Shown: positions 6,374 through 32,000, counted from the first letter of the stretch. The stretch is DNA of 32,000 nucleotides from an uncultured beta proteobacterium (GCA_963786735.1 CAWBAF010000006.1:304566-336565); one strand, 5' to 3'. Notes: generated from the letters alone by a model not told the origin. Made by a program: numbers and translations.

Positions 6374-6641
6374 TTCGAACTATTCCCGGCCCGTGGTTCC
6401 TCATCTCGAACGACGCAACCAGGGGCCGCCAGCCAGCCTGGCTGCACCCCCTTCGCCCGCCACATATTCCCGGATGCTGTTTGTTGTTTATGTGCGCTTC
6501 GGCGCTATATACTATAGCCCATTCCGCGCGTATTGCCCGATAGTCCGGAAAATCACTTCAGTATGCTGCGTGCCAGCTAGATGCGTGCGTTTGGGGGCGT
6601 ACGAGAGCACTGCGGACGTTTTTAAATATTTGCACAATTGC

Positions 6642-6670
6642 TTGACCAAGCCCAAGTGGCTTGATATAAA
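6642..6670 (+). promoter_or_regulatory. candidate sigma70 promoter for hupB
   Basis: TTGACC (6642-6647), a 17 nt spacer, then TATAAA (6665-6670) with an extended -10 TG at 6662-6663. It lies about 55 nt upstream of the hupB start. Confidence 0.55.
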
Positions 6671-6723
6671 ACCAATTGCAGGGTTTTTTGGAGCTCTCTC
6701 TACAATAACGAAAGGGGAATCAC

Positions 6724-6996
6724 GTGAATAAATCTGAACTGATCGATGCCATTGCAAAGTCTTCCGACATTTCCAAAGCGTCTGCAAGCAATGCTCTGGA
6801 TGGAGCGCTGACCGCAATAAAAAACGCATTAAAAAAAGGGCAAACTGTAACACTGGTCGGATTTGGAACTTTCAGGGTTGGCAAGCGAGCAGCCCGCACC
6901 GGTCGTAATCCCCGGACCGGTGCCGCCATCAAGATTGAATCAGCAAATGTTCCCAAGTTTACTGCTGGCAAGGCGCTCAAGGATGCAGTAAACTAG
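6724..6996 (+). CDS. hupB: DNA-binding protein HU-beta
   Basis: The sequence [11 protein letters not shown]...[21 protein letters not shown]...[13 protein letters not shown] is a typical 90-aa HU. It uses a GTG start preceded by AAAGGGGA. Confidence 0.95.
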
Positions 6997-7008
6997 TGCG
7001 CTTTTGAC

Positions 7009-7084
7009 GGGTGCTTAGCTCAGTTGGTAGAGCGTCGCCCTTACAAGGCGAATGTCGGCGGTTCGACCCCGTCAGCACCCACCA
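7009..7084 (+). tRNA. tRNA-Val (anticodon UAC)
   Basis: The acceptor is GGGTGCT/AGCACCC, the anticodon stem is TCGCC/GGCGA with loop CTTACAA, the T-arm is GGTTCGA, and CCA is encoded. Confidence 0.94.
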
Positions 7085-7108
7085 CCAGTAGGATAGCTTG
7101 AATTTGCT

Positions 7109-7185
7109 GGAGTGGTAGTTCAGTTGGTTAGAATACCGGCCTGTCACGCCGGGGGTCGCGGGTTCGAGTCCCGTCCACTCCGCCA
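7109..7185 (+). tRNA. tRNA-Asp (anticodon GUC)
   Basis: The acceptor is GGAGTGG/CCACTCC, the anticodon stem is CCGGC/GCCGG with loop CTGTCAC, the T-arm is GGTTCGAGTCC, and CCA is encoded. Confidence 0.94.
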
Positions 7186-7202
7186 GCTTTCACGTTGAAC
7201 CA

Positions 7203-7227
7203 GGCGAACGTAAGTTCGCCTTTTTTT
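7203..7227 (+). terminator. Rho-independent terminator after the tRNA-Val/tRNA-Asp pair
   Basis: GGCGAAC-gtaa-GTTCGCC forms a perfect 7-bp stem and is followed by TTTTTTT. Confidence 0.85.
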
Positions 7228-7249
7228 ATTCGCTCTCTTAATTTCTGCA

Positions 7250-9139
7250 ATGTTTGATTTTGTTCATAAAAAAAGACGCATAGTCCAGATTATCCTCGGT
7301 CTTGCTACGCTGCCATTTCTGTTCTGGGGCATTGAATCGTACCGCAACGCGGGGGGTGACGATTATGTGGCGTTAGCAGCAGGAGAGAAAATTTCACGAC
7401 AGGAATTCGAACAGGCGCTTCGCAATCAACAGGAAAGCATGCGGTCAACGATGGGAGAGAGGTTTGATGAAGCCTTGCTGGAAAGGCCTGAAGTGCGCGC
7501 GGCGGTACTGGATGGATTGATTCAGCAGCGTCTGCTGAAGCAGGAGGCAGACCGCGTCGGGCTCACGGTTTCAGATCCCCAGTTGATAGAAATGATTCAG
7601 AACATCTCGGCTTTCCAGGAGGATGGAAAATTCTCCAAGAAACGGTACGAAGAATTGCTAAAGGGCCAGGGGATGAGCCCACGAGCTTTCGAAGCGCGTG
7701 TTCGTCAGGAACTTACGCGGCAGCAGCTCATTGCGCCATACGGGGAACACGGTTTTGTTCCGGGTTCGGTCACCGAGAAAATAATGAGACTGAGCGAAGA
7801 GAAGCGGGAGATCAGCCTGGCAAAAGTACAGCCGGAGCAATTTTTATCCCAGGTGAAACCCGATGACAACGCTATCAAAGCATATTATGAGCGTCACCAG
7901 GCCGAGTTCCAGTTGCCCGAGCAGGTTCGCGTTGAATATGTTGTGCTGTCACTCGATGATCTGGCCAAACAGGTGGTGGTCACCGACAATGAGGCTGAAA
8001 AATATTTTGACGAGCATAGGGGCGAATTTGAACAGGCAGAGGAGCGGCGTGCAAGCCACATTCTGATAAGCGCGCCGGAAAGCGCGCCAGAGGCAGAGAA
8101 GTCTGCTGCGCGCGCGAAAGCTGAGCAATTACTGGCGGAAATAAGACAAGCCCCTCAGAATTTCGAAAAATTTGCCAAGGAGCATTCACAGGACCCTGGC
8201 ACAGCAGAGAAAGGCGGCGATCTCGGGTTTTTTTCCCGAAATATGATGGTCAAGTCGTTTGAGGATGCGGTTTTTCAGATGAAATTGAACGAAATCAGTG
8301 ACGTGGTCGAGACAAACCACGGATTTCACATCATCAGGCTTACTGGGATAAAAGCGGGAAAACCAGTGAATTTGAGCGAAGTGAAAGTTCGGGTGGAGGA
8401 GGAGATCAAGAAACAAAAAGCGAGAAAGCTCTTTGACGAAATGGCAGAAGGCTTCAGCAATACGGTTTACGAACAGAGCGACAGCCTGAAGCCCGCTGCG
8501 GAGAAGTTTAACCTGGCTCTTCATCGAAGCGACTGGATTGGAAAAAAAGGCGGCCAACCCCCCTACTTCAGCAATGCAAGACTACTCCAGGCGGTGTTTT
8601 CGGAGGACGCGATCAAGAACAAGCATAATACCGAAGCCGTTGAAGTTGCCCCGAATACTCTTGTCGCAGCAAGGGTGCTGGATTACCGGCCTGCATCGAC
8701 ACCTTCCCTTGCCGAGCTGAAGGACAAGATTAGCGCCTTGGTAACGCGCCAGGAGGCTGCCAGCGCCGCAGTGAGGGAAGGTAAGGACAAGCTTGCGCAG
8801 CTCCGCGAAAACAAGGCAGCAGGTGTTTCCTGGAGTCCTGCCCAACAAGTTTCCCGCCGGGATCCTCAGGGCCTTGATATGGAAACGCTCCGAGCCGTGT
8901 TCAGCGCCGACATGAGCCGCTTGCCAGCTTTTGTCGGACTGCCCAATTTCGAAGGAGGCTTTACCCTTATTCGTATCAGTAAGGTTATCGAGCCTATCCT
9001 CCCGGATACGGCTGCACGCAAGGCTTTTGGCAAACAATTACAGCAGCTTCTCACCCAGGAAGAACTTGCGTCTTATCTCGCAGATATCAGGAAGAGATAT
9101 GACGTATCTGTAAAAGCTGAAAACCTGGAGCGGAAGTGA
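7250..9139 (+). CDS. ppiD: periplasmic chaperone / peptidyl-prolyl isomerase PpiD
   Basis: It has an N-terminal membrane anchor (IVQIILGLATLPFLFWGI), a SurA-like N domain and a parvulin domain (ASHILI...GGDLGFF...GFHIIRL). Its position after hupB matches conserved synteny. Confidence 0.9.
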   Translation: MFDFVHKKRRIVQIILGLATLPFLFWGIESYRNAGGDDYVALAAGEKISRQEFEQALRNQQESMRSTMGERFDEALLERPEVRAAVLDGLIQQRLLKQEADRVGLTVSDPQLIEMIQNISAFQEDGKFSKKRYEELLKGQGMSPRAFEARVRQELTRQQLIAPYGEHGFVPGSVTEKIMRLSEEKREISLAKVQPEQFLSQVKPDDNAIKAYYERHQAEFQLPEQVRVEYVVLSLDDLAKQVVVTDNEAEKYFDEHRGEFEQAEERRASHILISAPESAPEAEKSAARAKAEQLLAEIRQAPQNFEKFAKEHSQDPGTAEKGGDLGFFSRNMMVKSFEDAVFQMKLNEISDVVETNHGFHIIRLTGIKAGKPVNLSEVKVRVEEEIKKQKARKLFDEMAEGFSNTVYEQSDSLKPAAEKFNLALHRSDWIGKKGGQPPYFSNARLLQAVFSEDAIKNKHNTEAVEVAPNTLVAARVLDYRPASTPSLAELKDKISALVTRQEAASAAVREGKDKLAQLRENKAAGVSWSPAQQVSRRDPQGLDMETLRAVFSADMSRLPAFVGLPNFEGGFTLIRISKVIEPILPDTAARKAFGKQLQQLLTQEELASYLADIRKRYDVSVKAENLERK

Positions 9140-24519: not shown

Positions 24520-25347
<828 letters not shown>

Positions 25348-25405
25348 CCGGAAGATGGGGGAACGGAAGGTTGACCCGGGCTGCACGATAAGCTAAAGCC
25401 ACGAG

Positions 25406-25438
25406 AGGCTTCGCCCTCCTTCCTGGAGAGCGAGGCCT
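25406..25438 (+). other. stem-loop in the amoC-amoA intergenic region
   Basis: AGGCTTCGC pairs with GCGAGGCCT (9 bp including one G.U) and has an inner CTCC/GGAG extension. It lies in the 245-nt spacer. Confidence 0.4.
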
Positions 25439-25580
25439 GACCCCCTGGCGGGCAAAGGCACGCAGCGTGCCGAGGTAACAGGCCCACAGGGGGTGAAGGT
25501 GGCAGGGAGGAAGGCAGCCCAAGGGATGAGGGTCACGGAAAGCAGAAGCAACACAAATTGAATGGAACCTAGACTTTTGA

Positions 25581-27676
<2,096 letters not shown>

Positions 27677-27752
27677 GAAGAACCTTGGGGAGCCCCTGCG
27701 GGGTTCCCCCGGGAGAAATCCGGGCAGCAAACACGGAGACTGGAAACACGGA

Positions 27753-27799
27753 CACCGGTCCGCCAACGTCTGAAGACGAAGGTGGATCGGTGTTTTTTT
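27753..27799 (+). terminator. Rho-independent terminator after amoB
   Basis: CACCGGTCCGCC (27753-27764) pairs with GGTGGATCGGTG (27781-27792) as a 12-bp stem with 2 G.U pairs. There is an inner CGTC/GACG stem, and TTTTTTT follows at 27793-27799. A GC-rich hairpin GGGGAGCCCC-tgc-GGGGTTCCCC at 27687-27709 lies just before it. Confidence 0.85.
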
Positions 27800-27824
27800 A
27801 AGTGGATAAAATGAAAATCGGTCC

Positions 27825-27856
27825 TGGAAGCAAAATCACCGCAGTATTTGTATAAT
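27825..27856 (+). promoter_or_regulatory. candidate promoter for amoE-amoD (perfect -10 only)
   Basis: TATAAT lies at 27851-27856, about 100 nt upstream of the amoE ATG. No convincing -35 is present (the best candidate is TGGAAG/AAGCAA). Confidence 0.25.
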
Positions 27857-27958
27857 AGTGGCTTTTTCAAGCAGCCTTTTTTAAGCAATCTTGTCTCTGT
27901 ACCCCGTGACATTTGACAGCGTTGCAATGGAGCGGATCAACCCGCTAGCAGCCAAGCC

Positions 27959-28570
27959 ATGACAGCCACGACAGCCATGACCGTCACCCGCGCGATGCTG
28001 CGGGCAGGCACTGCGATCCTTGTCCTGGCATGGGCTCTGGTCGGAGCCCTTTATGCCGGGGGGGCGGCTGCGCATGGAAAGGAAACCATGGAAGAAGACA
28101 GCTGCAACCGCCGCATTGGCGAGAACATCGTGCACTTGAGCGCCTACCAGCCGCAATTCGACGCCAGCGCCCAATACTGCACCGAAATCCCCAAAGGGGG
28201 AGAAACCTACCTGGTGATCGATCTCATCGACCAGGCCATGCGCGAGATGCCCATTGGCATGCGCGTGATCAAGGGAACGAGCGAAACCGAAGACGAGACG
28301 GTCAGCCTGGTCAAGCCAGACTACCACCCCGACGGCGTGATCCGTGGCGAGTTAAACCTTGACCAGGGGCTCTACACGGTCATCATCACTGCGGAAGGGC
28401 TCCCGCCATTGCGCTACCAGTATCCCCTGCGCGTACAGATGGTCAATTATGCGCAGATATTCCGCACTGCGGTGGTGCCGCTTATCGGCCTGCTGCTGCT
28501 GGCCCTGCTGGGCTACAAGCTCATGAAATCCGAGCGTGTGCGGCGCTGGCGCTCCGCGCGGCGCCCATGA
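27959..28570 (+). CDS. amoE: AmoE (orf4), PmoD/AmoD-family periplasmic protein with signal peptide and C-terminal TM anchor
   Basis: It sits immediately after amoCAB and is a paralogue of the next gene. The two align without gaps over HG-x8-C-x9-H-x3-YQP-x8-C-xx-IP...MP. The C-terminal helix is VVPLIGLLLLALLGY. The start is ambiguous (ATGs at 27959, 27977 and 27995). Confidence 0.85.
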   Translation: MTATTAMTVTRAMLRAGTAILVLAWALVGALYAGGAAAHGKETMEEDSCNRRIGENIVHLSAYQPQFDASAQYCTEIPKGGETYLVIDLIDQAMREMPIGMRVIKGTSETEDETVSLVKPDYHPDGVIRGELNLDQGLYTVIITAEGLPPLRYQYPLRVQMVNYAQIFRTAVVPLIGLLLLALLGYKLMKSERVRRWRSARRP

Positions 28571-28631
28571 GCGCGCGCCCGCTCCTCTTATAGTGAATTT
28601 TATCCTCATCCTCATATAGGCGATTCTGACG

Positions 28632-29213
28632 ATGTTCCAAAAACTCCTGAAACCTGCCCTGCTTAGCCTGCTCCTGTCCATGAGCCTGCCCCATGCAATG
28701 GAGGCGCGCGCCCATGGGGGATTATCCCTGGCCGATGACGTATGCAAACTCACGATAGGCCCCTACACCATGCACTTTACCGGCTACCAGCCGGAAGCCA
28801 CGCAAGAGAAGGAATTCTGCGAAGACATTCCGTTGACCGGGCGCACCGTCGTGGCGCTGGACTACATTGAAGAAGCGCTGCGCCCCATGCCCACCGAAGT
28901 GCGCATCATCCGCGACACCGGCGCACCCGATGTCAAGCCCGCCGATCTGGACAACATTACCATCCTGCACATTCCCCCCAAGGTCTACCCCAACGGCTCC
29001 ATCACCTTCGAATACAACTTCCCGCAACCGGGCAAATTCGTGGGGTTGGTGACCGTAGGCGACAAACAGGAATACGTCTCGCGCTTCCCCTTCTCGGTGG
29101 GTGAACCCAAGGGCACCTCGCCCTTCCTGCTGGGCGCCATCGCGGCCGCGGTGGTGGCCGGGGTGGTATTCTTCCTGCGCGGGCGCAAACCAGCCAAGAT
29201 GAGCACGACCTGA
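28632..29213 (+). CDS. amoD: AmoD (orf5), PmoD/AmoD-family periplasmic protein with signal peptide and C-terminal TM anchor
   Basis: The signal peptide is MFQKLLKPALLSLLLSMSLP. The conserved core reads HGGLSLADDVCKLTIGPYTMHFTGYQP...FCEDIP. The C-terminal helix is FLLGAIAAAVVAGVVFF. It follows amoE in the amoCABED order known from beta-AOB. Confidence 0.87.
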   Translation: MFQKLLKPALLSLLLSMSLPHAMEARAHGGLSLADDVCKLTIGPYTMHFTGYQPEATQEKEFCEDIPLTGRTVVALDYIEEALRPMPTEVRIIRDTGAPDVKPADLDNITILHIPPKVYPNGSITFEYNFPQPGKFVGLVTVGDKQEYVSRFPFSVGEPKGTSPFLLGAIAAAVVAGVVFFLRGRKPAKMSTT

Positions 29214-29324
29214 AAGCTTTTTTGCGAGTCTTTGCTGCGGGCCGGGCCTGGATGCCTGGCGCTGCGGTACCTGAACCATACTGAAGCAAAAGAGTCGAAA
29301 GAATACCTGCGTCGCTTACAGGGA

Positions 29325-29546
29325 CTTGAACTCCCGGGGCTTAAAACCGGGGCTTGAAACCGAGCCTGGCGGATGAACGCTGGCACCCCCCTTGAGGGGT
29401 AGTCCTTGAGGGTAATAAGGGAAGCGGCAGGGGAGGCAACCCAACGAGGAGCAAGAGATGCAATCATGGACAGTTCCCGCCTTGAAGCGGGCAGGTGGCC
29501 AAGGCCAAAGCCGCCAAAGCGGCCAAAGCCCCATTACCGCCTTGAA
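29325..29546 (+). repeat. array of seven CTT(G/A)A(A/G) motifs, including two short tandem repeats, upstream of and inside the copC 5' end
   Basis: Motif starts are at 29325, 29340, 29353, 29391, 29405, 29481 and 29541. CCGGGGCTT(A/G)AAA occurs in tandem (29334-29346 and 29347-29359). CCTTGAGGG occurs twice (29390-29398 and 29404-29412). Confidence 0.7.
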
Positions 29547-29925
29547 AGGAATCACGCTGGGCGCCGGGCTCATCATCGCGCTTGCGGCAGGCCTGCACAG
29601 CCCCCCTGCCGCCGCGCATGCCATGCTCACCAAGGCCGAGCCTGCGCGCCGCGCCCAGCTCACCCGGCCGCCTGCACAGGTGCGCCTCTGGTTCAACGAA
29701 GAGGTTGAAAAGGATTACGCCGCACTCACCGTCATCCAGGGGGACAAGCCGGTTACCGCGGCCAAGCCCAGGGTTGCCGAAGACGACCCCAAGGCCATCG
29801 TCCTGTCCCTGCCGGAACTTTCCCCCGGGAAATACACCGTGAAGTTCCGGGTGCTGTCGGTGGACGGCCACGTGGTTGACTCGTCCTACGACTTTACCGT
29901 AAAGAGCAAAGTGTCGGGCAAATGA
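29458..29925 (+). CDS. copC: periplasmic copper-binding protein CopC
   Basis: The CopC fold signature is ...AAA|HAMLTKAEP...VRLWFNE...YTVKFRVLSVDGHVVDSSYDFTV. The ATG at 29458 has GAGGA 7 nt upstream. An in-frame TTG at 29542 is an alternative start directly before the signal-peptide hydrophobic core. Confidence 0.88.
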   Translation: MQSWTVPALKRAGGQGQSRQSGQSPITALKGITLGAGLIIALAAGLHSPPAAAHAMLTKAEPARRAQLTRPPAQVRLWFNEEVEKDYAALTVIQGDKPVTAAKPRVAEDDPKAIVLSLPELSPGKYTVKFRVLSVDGHVVDSSYDFTVKSKVSGK

Positions 29926-32000
29926 TCGACGTCGTCGCAACGCTGTTTCGCTGGTTACAGCTTGCGTCCAACATGATCCTGGTCGGGGCCTGCGTATTTC
30001 TGGCCATTGCCGGCTTCTTCCATTCACCCTGGGTCACCCGCCTGCAACGCGCCTTGCCCTGGCTGGGCCTCATCCTGCTCATCGGACTGGTGGGCATCCT
30101 GTCCACCACCACCGCCCAGGCCACCGGCATCGGTGAGAATGCCTGGCGGCTGGATGCCTGGCTCGCCCTCATGAAGAATACCCGCATGGGGCAGATCTGG
30201 ATTGCGCGGGCTGCCTGTGGCCTGGTGGTATTCGCCATTGCCTGCTATTTGCGCTACAGTCCCCCGGCGCGCTGGAAATATATCCTGTGCGCGACTGCCG
30301 CATCGCTCACCCTGACGGTGGGCGCGCTGGCCAGCCATTCGGCCGCCGAAGAGCTCTCGGTCATGTCGATTCTGCCCTACGCCTTGCACATCATCATGGC
30401 AAGCGTATGGTTTGGCGCCCTGCCCGCCTTCCTCGCCGTCTGCTTTGCCTGCACCGAACCCGAGAAGAAAGAGCCTGCGCACCCCGGCCTGCAAACGGAA
30501 GCCATTGCCCGCATCCACGCCCTGTTCCAATCGCGCGAACAGGCGATGGCCGCGGGCGCAATAGCGCTCAAGCGCTTCTCCACCATGGCCCTGCCCGTCA
30601 TGCTGGGCGTCATTGCCACCGGCGTCATCATCACCGACCGCATGGTCGACACGAGCTATAGTGGCCTGGTGGCCACCCGTTATGGCTGGTTGCTCGATGC
30701 CAAGCTTGCGTTGCTGGGGGTCGTGCTGGTGATTGCCGCACGGGCGCGCTCCACCTGGCTGCCCCTGCTTGCCCGGACCACCGAGGGCCAGAACGCCCAG
30801 GCTGGCGGAGAAAAGCTGCGCAAATGGGTGAGTTTCGAATTCCTGCTGGCCATGGGCATTGTGCTGCTTGCCACCATCGTGGCCAATACCGTACCTGCCA
30901 AGCACGCCCTCATCCAGGACTGGCCCTACTCCTTCCGCTTTTCGCTCGCGGCGACCTGGGGCGATCCTGTCGTGATGACCCGGGTATACAGCGGGCTGGC
31001 GCTGCTTGCCGCAGCCATTGCCGCGGTGCTGTTCGGACGCAGCCGGGGCTGGACCGGGAAACTGCGCGCGGGCGTGCCGGCCGTGCTGGCGGTTGCCGCC
31101 TTCGCGGTGGGCCTGCCGCCCCTGGCCGTGGATGCCTATCCGGAAACCTATCGCAAGACCCCGGTGCCCTTCGACACCATTTCGATTGCCAACGGCTCAG
31201 GCCTCTTTGCCGAGAACTGCGTGGCCTGCCATGGCCCCCAGGGCAAGGGCGATGGCGTCATGGCCAAGAGCTTTGCCAAGCCGCCGGTGGACATGCTGAC
31301 CGAGCCGCATACCGCCAAGCATACTGCCGGCGACTTCTTCCACTGGCTCACCTTCGGCATACCGGATACCGGCATGCCCCTGTTTGCCGACAAGCTCAGC
31401 GAAGAAGACCGCTGGGATGTGGTCAACTACCTGCACGCCATGTCGCGGGGCTACCAGGCACGGCTGATGAGTCCCACGGTCAAGCCCGAGCAGCCCCAGC
31501 TCAATATGGGACCGCCCAATTTCTCCTATATCGCCCAGGATGGCTCAAGCGGCACCCTCAAGGATTTCCGCGGCCAGAAGAACGTCCTGCTCGTGCTGTT
31601 CTCCTGGCCGCAATCGCGCGAGCGCCTGCAGGAACTGCAAAGCCTCCATTCCCGGCTTGCCCAGGCCAACACCGTGCTGCTGGCCGTGCCGGAAGATGAC
31701 CTGGCCCCGCAGGACCTGGCCCGCATTGCAGAACTTCCCTTCCCGGTGGTTACCCAGGGCTCGCCCGAGATCGTGCAAAGCTACGCCCTGTTTCGCAGGA
31801 CGCTCTCCAAACCCGATCTCCTGGGAGAAGGCACCCTGCCGCGCCACCTGGAGTTCCTGATCGACCGCTTTGGCTATCTGCGCGCGCGCTGGATACCCGA
31901 TGCCGACGGGCCCGCCTGGAACAATACCGACACACTGCTCAAACAGATCGCCCAGCTCAACCGCGAAAAAGAAATACTCCCCCCACCAGGCGACCATGTG
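29922..32000 (+). CDS. copD: CopD-family membrane protein fused to a c-type cytochrome domain and a Cys-free thioredoxin/AhpC-like domain; 3' end beyond the window
   Basis: It is not in the ORF track. The ATG at 29922 overlaps the copC TGA (ATGA). I translated 693 codons by hand with no stop to position 32000. About 10 hydrophobic segments carry CopD-like SHSAAE and LHIIMASVWFGALPAF. The heme motif CVACH lies at 31218-31232 and GMPLF at 31371-31385. A Trx-fold-like segment FSYIAQDGSSGTLKDFRGQKNVLLVLFSWPQS...FLIDRFGYLRARW follows. Confidence 0.88.
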   Translation, partial: MIDVVATLFRWLQLASNMILVGACVFLAIAGFFHSPWVTRLQRALPWLGLILLIGLVGILSTTTAQATGIGENAWRLDAWLALMKNTRMGQIWIARAACGLVVFAIACYLRYSPPARWKYILCATAASLTLTVGALASHSAAEELSVMSILPYALHIIMASVWFGALPAFLAVCFACTEPEKKEPAHPGLQTEAIARIHALFQSREQAMAAGAIALKRFSTMALPVMLGVIATGVIITDRMVDTSYSGLVATRYGWLLDAKLALLGVVLVIAARARSTWLPLLARTTEGQNAQAGGEKLRKWVSFEFLLAMGIVLLATIVANTVPAKHALIQDWPYSFRFSLAATWGDPVVMTRVYSGLALLAAAIAAVLFGRSRGWTGKLRAGVPAVLAVAAFAVGLPPLAVDAYPETYRKTPVPFDTISIANGSGLFAENCVACHGPQGKGDGVMAKSFAKPPVDMLTEPHTAKHTAGDFFHWLTFGIPDTGMPLFADKLSEEDRWDVVNYLHAMSRGYQARLMSPTVKPEQPQLNMGPPNFSYIAQDGSSGTLKDFRGQKNVLLVLFSWPQSRERLQELQSLHSRLAQANTVLLAVPEDDLAPQDLARIAELPFPVVTQGSPEIVQSYALFRRTLSKPDLLGEGTLPRHLEFLIDRFGYLRARWIPDADGPAWNNTDTLLKQIAQLNREKEILPPPGDHV

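Follow-up and report, generated by a model that had tools for sequence, protein, structure and literature searches.

Why should a copper permease carry a heme and a thioredoxin-type fold, and why should such a protein be encoded at the end of an ammonia monooxygenase (AMO) gene cluster? The question is raised by a 32,000-nt stretch of DNA from an uncultured beta proteobacterium (GCA_963786735.1 CAWBAF010000006.1:304566-336565), referred to here at its full length as the window, in which a long open reading frame (ORF) runs on the plus strand from 29922 up to the last nucleotide. This ORF is near certainly copD of an amoC-amoA-amoB-amoE-amoD-copC-copD cluster from an ammonia oxidiser of the Nitrosospira lineage, and its product joins a CopD permease to a class I cytochrome c domain and a cysteine-less thioredoxin-fold domain. 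As an explanation of the locus as a whole, the combination of this identity with heme-mediated copper redox chemistry at the transporter is the best that we can offer, and we would give it about an even chance of being right. Copper supply limits ammonia and methane monooxygenase activity and bacterial copper import is poorly understood; CopD proteins with a tethered cytochrome lend themselves to asking whether an enzyme catalyses copper reduction at the transporter.

The frame that opens at ATG 29922 was translated through 693 sense codons with zero stops, and its start overlaps the copC stop by 4 bp as ATGA, both as read in an earlier annotation made from the DNA alone (the original prediction). 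The GC content at the third codon position (GC3) is 0.81 in this frame vs 0.65 and 0.47 in the other two. The nearest database protein is 98% identical and 694 amino acids (aa) long, and the relatives inspected all terminate in ...PPPGDHVH*, with the window translation stopping at ...PPPGDHV. Judged by these relatives, the window lacks just the last His codon and the stop of copD and the truncation is trivial. The gene had been reported as missing from the ORF list; it is real and it was unlisted, but only because the window edge precedes the stop by one codon and run-off ORFs are not listed, so the omission is a window-edge artefact. Four listed ORFs inside copD had been called shadow frames, rightly: their Arg+Gly+Pro fraction is 0.33-0.41 vs 0.19 in the long frame, and the GC maximum is not at codon position 3 in any of them. 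The gene and the parts of its product are given below.

29922..32000, plus strand: copD gene, 693 of 694 codons (open frame, GC3, the 98% identical 694-aa protein, Pfam, AlphaFold2)
29922..30884, plus strand: CopD membrane core, transmembrane (TM) helices 1-8, aa 1-321 (Pfam, NCBIfam, hydropathy, loop charges, BLASTP to YebZ)
30336..30389, plus strand: His139 ... His156, putative periplasm-facing copper-receiving pair (alignment with YebZ)
30885..31133, plus strand: subfamily-specific extension, aa 322-404, a periplasmic loop and then TM9 and TM10
31134..31466, plus strand: class I monoheme cytochrome c domain, aa 405-515 (PF00034/PF13442, Foldseek)
31218-31232, plus strand: CVACH, aa 433-437, heme-attachment motif
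31308-31322, plus strand: His463/His467 pair in a conserved segment
31374-31376, plus strand: axial Met485, distal ligand
31467..31964, plus strand: cysteine-less thioredoxin-fold domain, aa 516-681 (Pfam AhpC-TSA, profile, Foldseek)
31602-31625, plus strand: SWPQSRER at the active-site position
31851-31892, plus strand: conserved strand motif EFLIDRFGYLRARW
31965..32000, plus strand: C-terminal tail ...LPPPGDHV(H) with an H-x-H end, candidate metal-binding

With the Pfam gathering score as the threshold, all three domains of the protein were recovered: CopD (PF05425) at aa 215-318 with 68.1 bits (cut-off 32.1), Cytochrom_C (PF00034, together with Cytochrome_CBB3, PF13442) at aa 422-507 with 62.9 bits (cut-off 21.3) and, marginally, AhpC-TSA (PF00578) at aa 532-655 with 28.5 bits (cut-off 26). 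The first two, whose absence would have refuted the original prediction by its own account, lie well above their cut-offs, and its three-domain reading of permease, class I cytochrome c and thioredoxin fold is upheld by Pfam and the structural model alike. The NCBIfam model NF033808 ('copper homeostasis membrane protein CopD') matched aa 4-177 with 81.7 bits, below its cut-off of 195; on sequence grounds the protein is a member of a divergent, extended subfamily and no equivalog of the 8-helix protein.

The membrane core matched E. coli YebZ by BLASTP (E 1e-8), with His139 and His156 aligned to YebZ His135 and His154, both of which are needed for copper uptake in E. coli (PMC11923076). Across 105 family members, His139 is 97% and His156 100% conserved. 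The protein is therefore best described as a predicted CopD-type permease with the YebZ-type histidine pair, for which copper import is the expected activity. YebZ ends before the extension at aa 322-404, the loop of which contains a near-invariant histidine (His328, 30903-30905; 98% conserved). TM9 and TM10, by which the chain would re-enter the periplasm, were placed at 354-372 and 385-403 by hydropathy and appear as helices 349-375 and 380-397 in the AlphaFold2 model. About ten hydrophobic helices had been anticipated, and hydropathy and the model agree on ten. The loop charges fit the positive-inside rule with an N-out/C-out topology. From the even number of helices and these charges the 290-residue tail is predicted to be periplasmic, as heme attachment requires. 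The AlphaFold2 model, built on 105 family sequences, has a mean predicted local distance difference test score (pLDDT) of 94.3 and a predicted template modelling score (pTM) of 0.90, its only weak part being a cytoplasmic loop near aa 181-210; with such confidence throughout the chain, the three domains would be held in a fixed arrangement.

The cytochrome c pattern expected for the soluble segment, CXXCH followed by a distal Met, was found as CVACH at 433-437 with Met485, and across 105 sequences Cys433, Cys436, His437 and Met485 never vary. The domain is predicted to be a canonical His437/Met485 monoheme class I cytochrome c, carrying covalent heme on the periplasmic side. Its closest solved relative is cytochrome c552 of Thioalkalivibrio paradoxus, at 36% identity, and the Foldseek comparison of the two (9VR0; target template modelling score, or TM-score, 0.82; root-mean-square deviation 1.3 Å) assigns the domain to the class I fold. 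The heme of this cytochrome c552 is open to solvent and has a midpoint potential near +160 mV, and its partner in electron exchange is a tri-copper enzyme (PMC9456337).

A stretch 32% identical to the heme domain was also seen on plasmids of Xanthomonas euvesicatoria and X. hortorum (e.g. NZ_CP018464.1 93785-94081), where it sits within genes annotated 'FTR1 family protein'. These genes are apparently fusions of a metal permease with a cytochrome c, and are possibly a parallel case of redox-coupled transport.

The last domain had been described as AhpC/TSA-like, which is true of its fold but not of its chemistry. Profile searches matched it to AhpE (E 3e-9), ResA (E 6e-7) and TlpA, within a range of 3e-9 to 1e-5, and Foldseek gave target TM-scores of 0.6-0.78 against ResA, Bcp, AhpE and TlpA. 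When the sequence of the window CopD was read, no cysteine was found past residue 436, and in the profile search the catalytic TGIC segment of AhpE aligned to a three-residue gap family-wide. Cysteines after the CXXCH motif numbered zero in 14 of the 20 full-length members sampled and one or two in the other six. With neither the peroxidatic cysteine of a PxxxTxxC motif nor a CXXC site, and with the catalytic segment deleted, the domain can work neither as peroxiredoxin nor as thiol-disulfide oxidoreductase, so that redox activity of the AhpC/TSA type is impossible and an active enzyme of either class was ruled out. Membership of Sco1/SenC was likewise ruled out, as there is no PF02630 match, the CxxxC...H copper site is absent and the domain has no cysteines; no Sco1 chain appeared at E <= 1 in the profile search of the domain, and only the general fold is common to both. 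What is conserved instead is the end of the protein. An H-x-H C-terminus is present in 129 of 150 family representatives, mostly as (D/E)HVH, and 79 of those end in HVH; conservation reaches 97% at His692 and is almost complete at the last His. That this motif and the His463/His467 pair make up one site was considered and rejected, since their losses fall in different sequences.

Proteins resembling this tail also occur on their own. A membrane-anchored cytochrome c joined to a tail-related domain is encoded as a stand-alone gene in Burkholderia cenocepacia (NZ_CP091013.1; locus L016, 4788-5846), next to ATP-binding cassette (ABC) transporter and NMT1-like genes with no CopD, and similar proteins were seen in Ralstonia and B. 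multivorans. These Burkholderia and Ralstonia proteins are 25-28% identical to the CopD tail over >90% of its length and keep the LLADRRGWLRAR motif. The existence of such CopD-free proteins means that the two-domain tail exists as an independent module.

Immediately upstream of copD lies the gene of its presumed partner.

29458..29925, plus strand: copC, periplasmic Cu(II)-binding partner (Pfam CopC, 81.4 bits)

The window CopC has a mature N-terminal His and a D-G-H motif, with no Met-rich site and no Cys. In each of the eight CopC partners examined, the mature protein begins with His, contains a VLSVD(G/A)H motif and no more than one Met, and is free of Cys. An N-terminal His with D-x-H and no Met-rich Cu(I) site is what we take to be the mark of the Cu(II)-only type of CopC. 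In all eight loci examined, copC stands directly upstream of the fused copD. The 4-bp overlap of copC stop and copD start is kept in distant lineages (29922-29925 in the window, 8001-8004 in locus L005 and 9001-9004 in both L017 and L021), which suggests translational coupling and a fixed CopC:CopD stoichiometry.

A further gene recurs at these loci. It encodes a small secreted protein and directly follows copD in five loci with amo genes, one of them from the closest species-level relative of the window, so that its expected place here is just past the window end. In one non-amo locus it directly precedes copC (42% identity, E 9e-37); it is absent from loci of the N. multiformis type. The six occurrences are as follows.

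L001 4621-5064: small secreted protein
L003 ~6794-7351: small secreted protein
L004 ~6553-7107: small secreted protein
L005 10118-10780: small secreted protein
L020 11083-11601: small secreted protein
L014 7060-7569: small secreted protein

The protein has a predicted mature N-terminus of the form H(T/S)xEY...HGGQ and a His-rich C-terminus, and no relative of it was found in Pfam, NCBIfam or PDB. It may be a third copper-handling partner.

The identity of the gene as the copD of an amo operon is supported by its neighbours.

24532-25347, plus strand: amoC (Pfam and NCBIfam equivalog matches)
25593-26417, plus strand: amoA (Pfam and NCBIfam equivalog matches)
26417-27676, plus strand: amoB (Pfam and NCBIfam equivalog matches)
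27959-28570, plus strand: PmoD-family gene in the amoE/orf4 position (PDB 6CPD PmoD, E 2e-7)
28632-29213, plus strand: PmoD-family gene in the amoD/orf5 position (PDB 6CPD PmoD, E 2e-23)

The matches of amoC, amoA and amoB range from E 1e-112 to 1e-221. Together with copC and copD these genes lie on one strand in the order amoC, amoA, amoB, two PmoD-family genes, copC, copD, with copD as the last gene of the cluster within the window; the Pfam and NCBIfam matches upstream confirm that copD closes the amo cluster and comes immediately behind copC. The same order is found in Nitrosovibrio sp. Nv4 and in locus L020, and it matches the published layout of the extended beta-proteobacterial amo operon (PMC6189053). 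Among relatives with a name, those nearest to it come from Nitrosospira and Nitrosovibrio, with 76-87% identity and the same gene order, and a contig scan with the single copD protein matched only these two genera. The CopD of the amo operon has been seen at low abundance in the proteomes of N. europaea and N. multiformis (PMC5960693).

Several features of the cluster were noted in passing. The ORF in the amoD position resembles the PmoD structure far better than the ORF in the amoE position. The published CuA motif of PmoD is Cx7MxH; ORF 27959-28570 reads C-x7-I-x-H and ORF 28632-29213 reads C-x8-M-H, so both have a His ten residues past the first Cys and neither has a Met at +8. All seven genes from amoC to copD (24532-32000) have a GC3 of 0.75-0.81 and an overall GC of 0.56-0.64. 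The remainder of the window consists of housekeeping genes, and all 14 of those upstream (458-23438) have a GC3 of 0.54-0.64. The amo-cop cluster forms one compositional unit that stands apart from its surroundings, which either expression-linked codon bias or a horizontal origin could explain, and the shared GC3 also speaks for copD as a member of the cluster. Many public Nitrosospira contigs end just upstream of copC/copD or within the amo cluster (L002, L007, L008, L009 and L011). These breaks would fit a collapse of multi-copy amoCAB repeats during assembly and may be a reason why copD often appears truncated or isolated on short contigs.

The fused architecture reaches well beyond the nitrifiers. 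We searched the soluble tail against 1.84 billion cluster representatives (50% identity clusters) and obtained 235 clusters at E <= 1e-30. Full-length members are mostly 630-700 aa long with the tail at the C-terminus, and 104 full-length representatives (50% clustering) have the same layout, which speaks for one polypeptide rather than merged genes. CopD and cytochrome c were detected in 68 of 68 divergent members sampled and AhpC-TSA in just 15 of them, so Pfam usually fails to register the last domain. The members with a name belong to Nitrosospira, Nitrosovibrio, Nitrosomonadales, comammox-type Nitrospiraceae, Methylocapsa palsarum and Candidatus Binatia, Methylocapsa being the only one named among 20 cluster representatives looked up; a contig search with the family profile was dominated by nitrifier sequences. 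Among the loci examined, amoCAB stands beside the fused copD only in the nitrifier clade (the window, L005 and L020). In five divergent members (Methylocapsa, two Binatia-type loci and two further lineages) no monooxygenase genes lie near the fused copCD. Restriction of the fused CopD to amo/pmo operons was rejected on these five counter-examples, all of which have CopC. The original prediction had asked for a survey of whether the fusion is restricted to ammonia and methane oxidisers. Since a published study of Binatota genomes counted a copper monooxygenase in just 11 of them (PMC8262859), a strict link of the fused CopD to owners of such enzymes is unlikely.

In two loci of the Candidatus Binatia type (L017 6842-10998 and L021 6833-11037), the order LVIVD beta-propeller, rhodanese, copC, fused copD is kept, with 4-bp overlaps among the last three genes, so that a sulfurtransferase adjoins the copper importer.

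The architecture itself is already known. Many members carry the label 'putative copper export protein/mono/diheme cytochrome c family protein/peroxiredoxin' from the Joint Genome Institute (JGI) pipeline, and a CopD subgroup with a cytochrome and a Sco1-or-thioredoxin-like domain, making up about 4% of CopD sequences, was noted in print in 2025 for the CopD of Methylosinus trichosporium OB3b (PMC11923076). Our literature search found no paper testing or discussing the role of the extra domains. With gene and architecture known, the value of the present analysis is modest: a sharpened hypothesis and a few new details, namely the Cys-less domain with its H-x-H end, the Cu(II)-only CopC partners, the kinship of the heme domain and the recurrent His-rich partner.

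What might the heme do? According to the literature, CopC hands Cu(II) to CopD, and recent work states that importers of the CopC/CopD type have no known reductase (PMC13344008). In the mechanism that we favour, the Cu(II)-only CopC would capture periplasmic Cu(II) and dock on the periplasmic face of CopD, where, at the site of hand-over, a single electron would be exchanged between the tethered heme and the copper. The most likely direction would be from Cu(II) to Cu(I), with electrons drawn from the periplasmic cytochrome pool; reduction would free the copper from CopC and let it pass via the His139/His156 site into the permease. The Cys-less thioredoxin-fold domain would serve as a structural or docking module rather than a thiol enzyme, with the H-x-H tail as a possible copper-holding arm. 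In nitrifiers the module is co-encoded with AMO and would presumably supply its copper, while the module itself would be generic. Heme-mediated copper redox at the hand-over from CopC to CopD is plausible as a hypothesis, and the idea of Cu(II)-to-Cu(I) reduction, already voiced in the original prediction, stays plausible and gains circumstantial support from the Cu(II)-only CopC and the copper-linked cytochrome kinship.

A bolder form of this proposal, in which the heme-fused CopD and the Cu(II)-only CopC, joined in many loci by the His-rich secreted protein, form a self-contained periplasmic cupric-reductase/import module, is tentative, and we would sooner bet against it than for it. If true, a bacterial copper importer that comes with its own metalloreductase would be known for the first time, and it would explain how CopC-held Cu(II) becomes transportable Cu(I), which in nitrifiers would feed AMO.

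Three observations weigh against reduction by the heme. A fused cytochrome is missing from about 96% of the CopD proteins, which import copper all the same, the experimentally studied YebZ and YcnJ among them (PMC11923076, PMC13344008), so reduction at the transporter is not obligatory. The homologous cytochrome of T. paradoxus takes electrons from Cu(I), the reverse of the proposed direction (PMC9456337). Finally, the separate losses of His463/His467 and of H-x-H give no sign of a single joint copper site.

The alternative that survives best, although we consider it unlikely, is that the tail is a copper-delivery or assembly module for extracytoplasmic cuproenzymes (AMO, heme-copper oxidase, NirK) and that the heme only holds the copper in its proper oxidation state. 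The YtkA domain of YcnJ supports assembly of the CuA site of cytochrome oxidase (PMC13344008), the thioredoxin fold is the scaffold of the Sco/TlpA copper-assembly factors, with TlpA among the fold and profile matches of the domain, and the conserved H-x-H end and the position of the nitrifier gene within the AMO operon, alongside PmoD-type copper proteins, point the same way. However, the CxxxC...H site of Sco is absent and no Sco1 chain was matched at E <= 1, and most divergent members adjoin no cuproenzyme gene. Delivery by the tail would in any case be compatible with reduction by the heme and not exclusive of it.

Rather less probable is a role of the heme as a cuprous oxidase, which would take an electron from periplasmic Cu(I) for capture by CopC or for Cu(I) detoxification and so replace the multicopper oxidase PcoA/CopA of cop/pco systems. 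The direction of electron flow would then be that of the closest solved homologue, which accepts electrons from a Cu(I) centre (PMC9456337); the CopC partners are predicted to bind Cu(II) only, and no multicopper oxidase gene was found in the amo-cop cluster. Against this, CopC/CopD without other cop genes lead to copper hypersensitivity and YebZ and YcnJ are importers (PMC8689200, PMC11923076), and oxidising copper just before its import into a reducing cytoplasm would bring no obvious benefit.

Still lower in our estimate stands a redox sensor or gate, in which the heme domain would couple the permease to the periplasmic cytochrome pool, whether of respiration or of ammonia oxidation, with no electron transfer to copper. 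The fixed domain arrangement of the model (pTM 0.90) could allow a redox-linked conformational change to reach the membrane domain, and the copper demand of nitrifiers probably scales with AMO and electron flux. Yet the domain has no sensor-type feature such as a PAS domain or labile ligation; its invariant His/Met ligation is of the classical electron-carrier type, and the homologous cytochrome c552 is an electron carrier.

That the long ORF is an artefact of two or three merged genes, or the last domain an active peroxiredoxin, deserves next to no credence: domain fusions at contig ends can be artefacts in general and an AhpC-TSA match does exist (only 2.5 bits over the cut-off), but a merger by frameshift or lost stop is ruled out by the continuous layout shared by >100 clusters (50% identity) that span several phyla and were assembled independently, and by the confident single-chain AlphaFold2 model, just as zero cysteines and a deleted catalytic segment rule out the peroxiredoxin.

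Compared with known systems, the window gene is a further orthologue of the CopD proteins of N. multiformis (Q2Y5C4) and N. europaea (Q820J3), which are encoded by the same gene in the same operon position (amoCABED-copCD) and have the same three-domain architecture; the named Nitrosospira and Nitrosovibrio proteins are 76-98% identical to it, with no essential difference. E. coli YebZ, the 8-helix importer of the yobA-yebZ-yebY operon, has a homologous core whose two essential histidines are both kept in the window CopD, and, like copD, it has a Cu(II)-binding CopC-type partner encoded immediately upstream. However, YebZ is 290 aa long and stops after helix 8, without the extra helices, the heme domain or the thioredoxin-fold domain. 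B. subtilis YcnJ, a CopC-CopD-YtkA fusion, is also a CopD permease with extra extracytoplasmic domains in which Cu(II) goes from CopC to CopD, and its C-terminal domain helps metalate a cuproenzyme. Its accessory domains are YtkA/DUF1775, its CopC is fused and it has no redox cofactor, whereas the window CopD has a cytochrome c and a thioredoxin fold and a separate CopC.

Cytochrome c552 of T. paradoxus (PDB 7O9U, 9VR0) is likewise a class I monoheme cytochrome and shares an H-x-x-x-H-(S/T)-x-G-D segment with the heme domain, including His463/His467; it has His-rich termini and exchanges electrons with a copper centre. It is, however, a soluble, stand-alone protein, whose partner is thiocyanate dehydrogenase and which accepts electrons from Cu(I). 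The AhpE/Bcp peroxiredoxins and the ResA/TlpA oxidoreductases have the same thioredoxin-type fold as the last domain and detectable homology to it, but they have a catalytic cysteine, whereas the domain of the window CopD has none, ends in H-x-H and is tethered to a cytochrome and a permease. The published note likened this domain to Sco1 or thioredoxin; in our searches it was nearer to AhpE, Bcp, ResA and TlpA, with no Sco1 match.

In eukaryotes, the Fre1/STEAP reductases feed the Cu(I) transporter Ctr1. The cupric reductase CcoG of R. capsulatus (PMC13344008) is similarly a functional analogy only, in that Cu(II) is reduced at the membrane before or during transport. CcoG and Fre1/STEAP are separate proteins with iron-sulfur or b-heme/flavin cofactors and no sequence or fold kinship to the window CopD, in which the putative electron carrier is a cytochrome c tethered to the permease.

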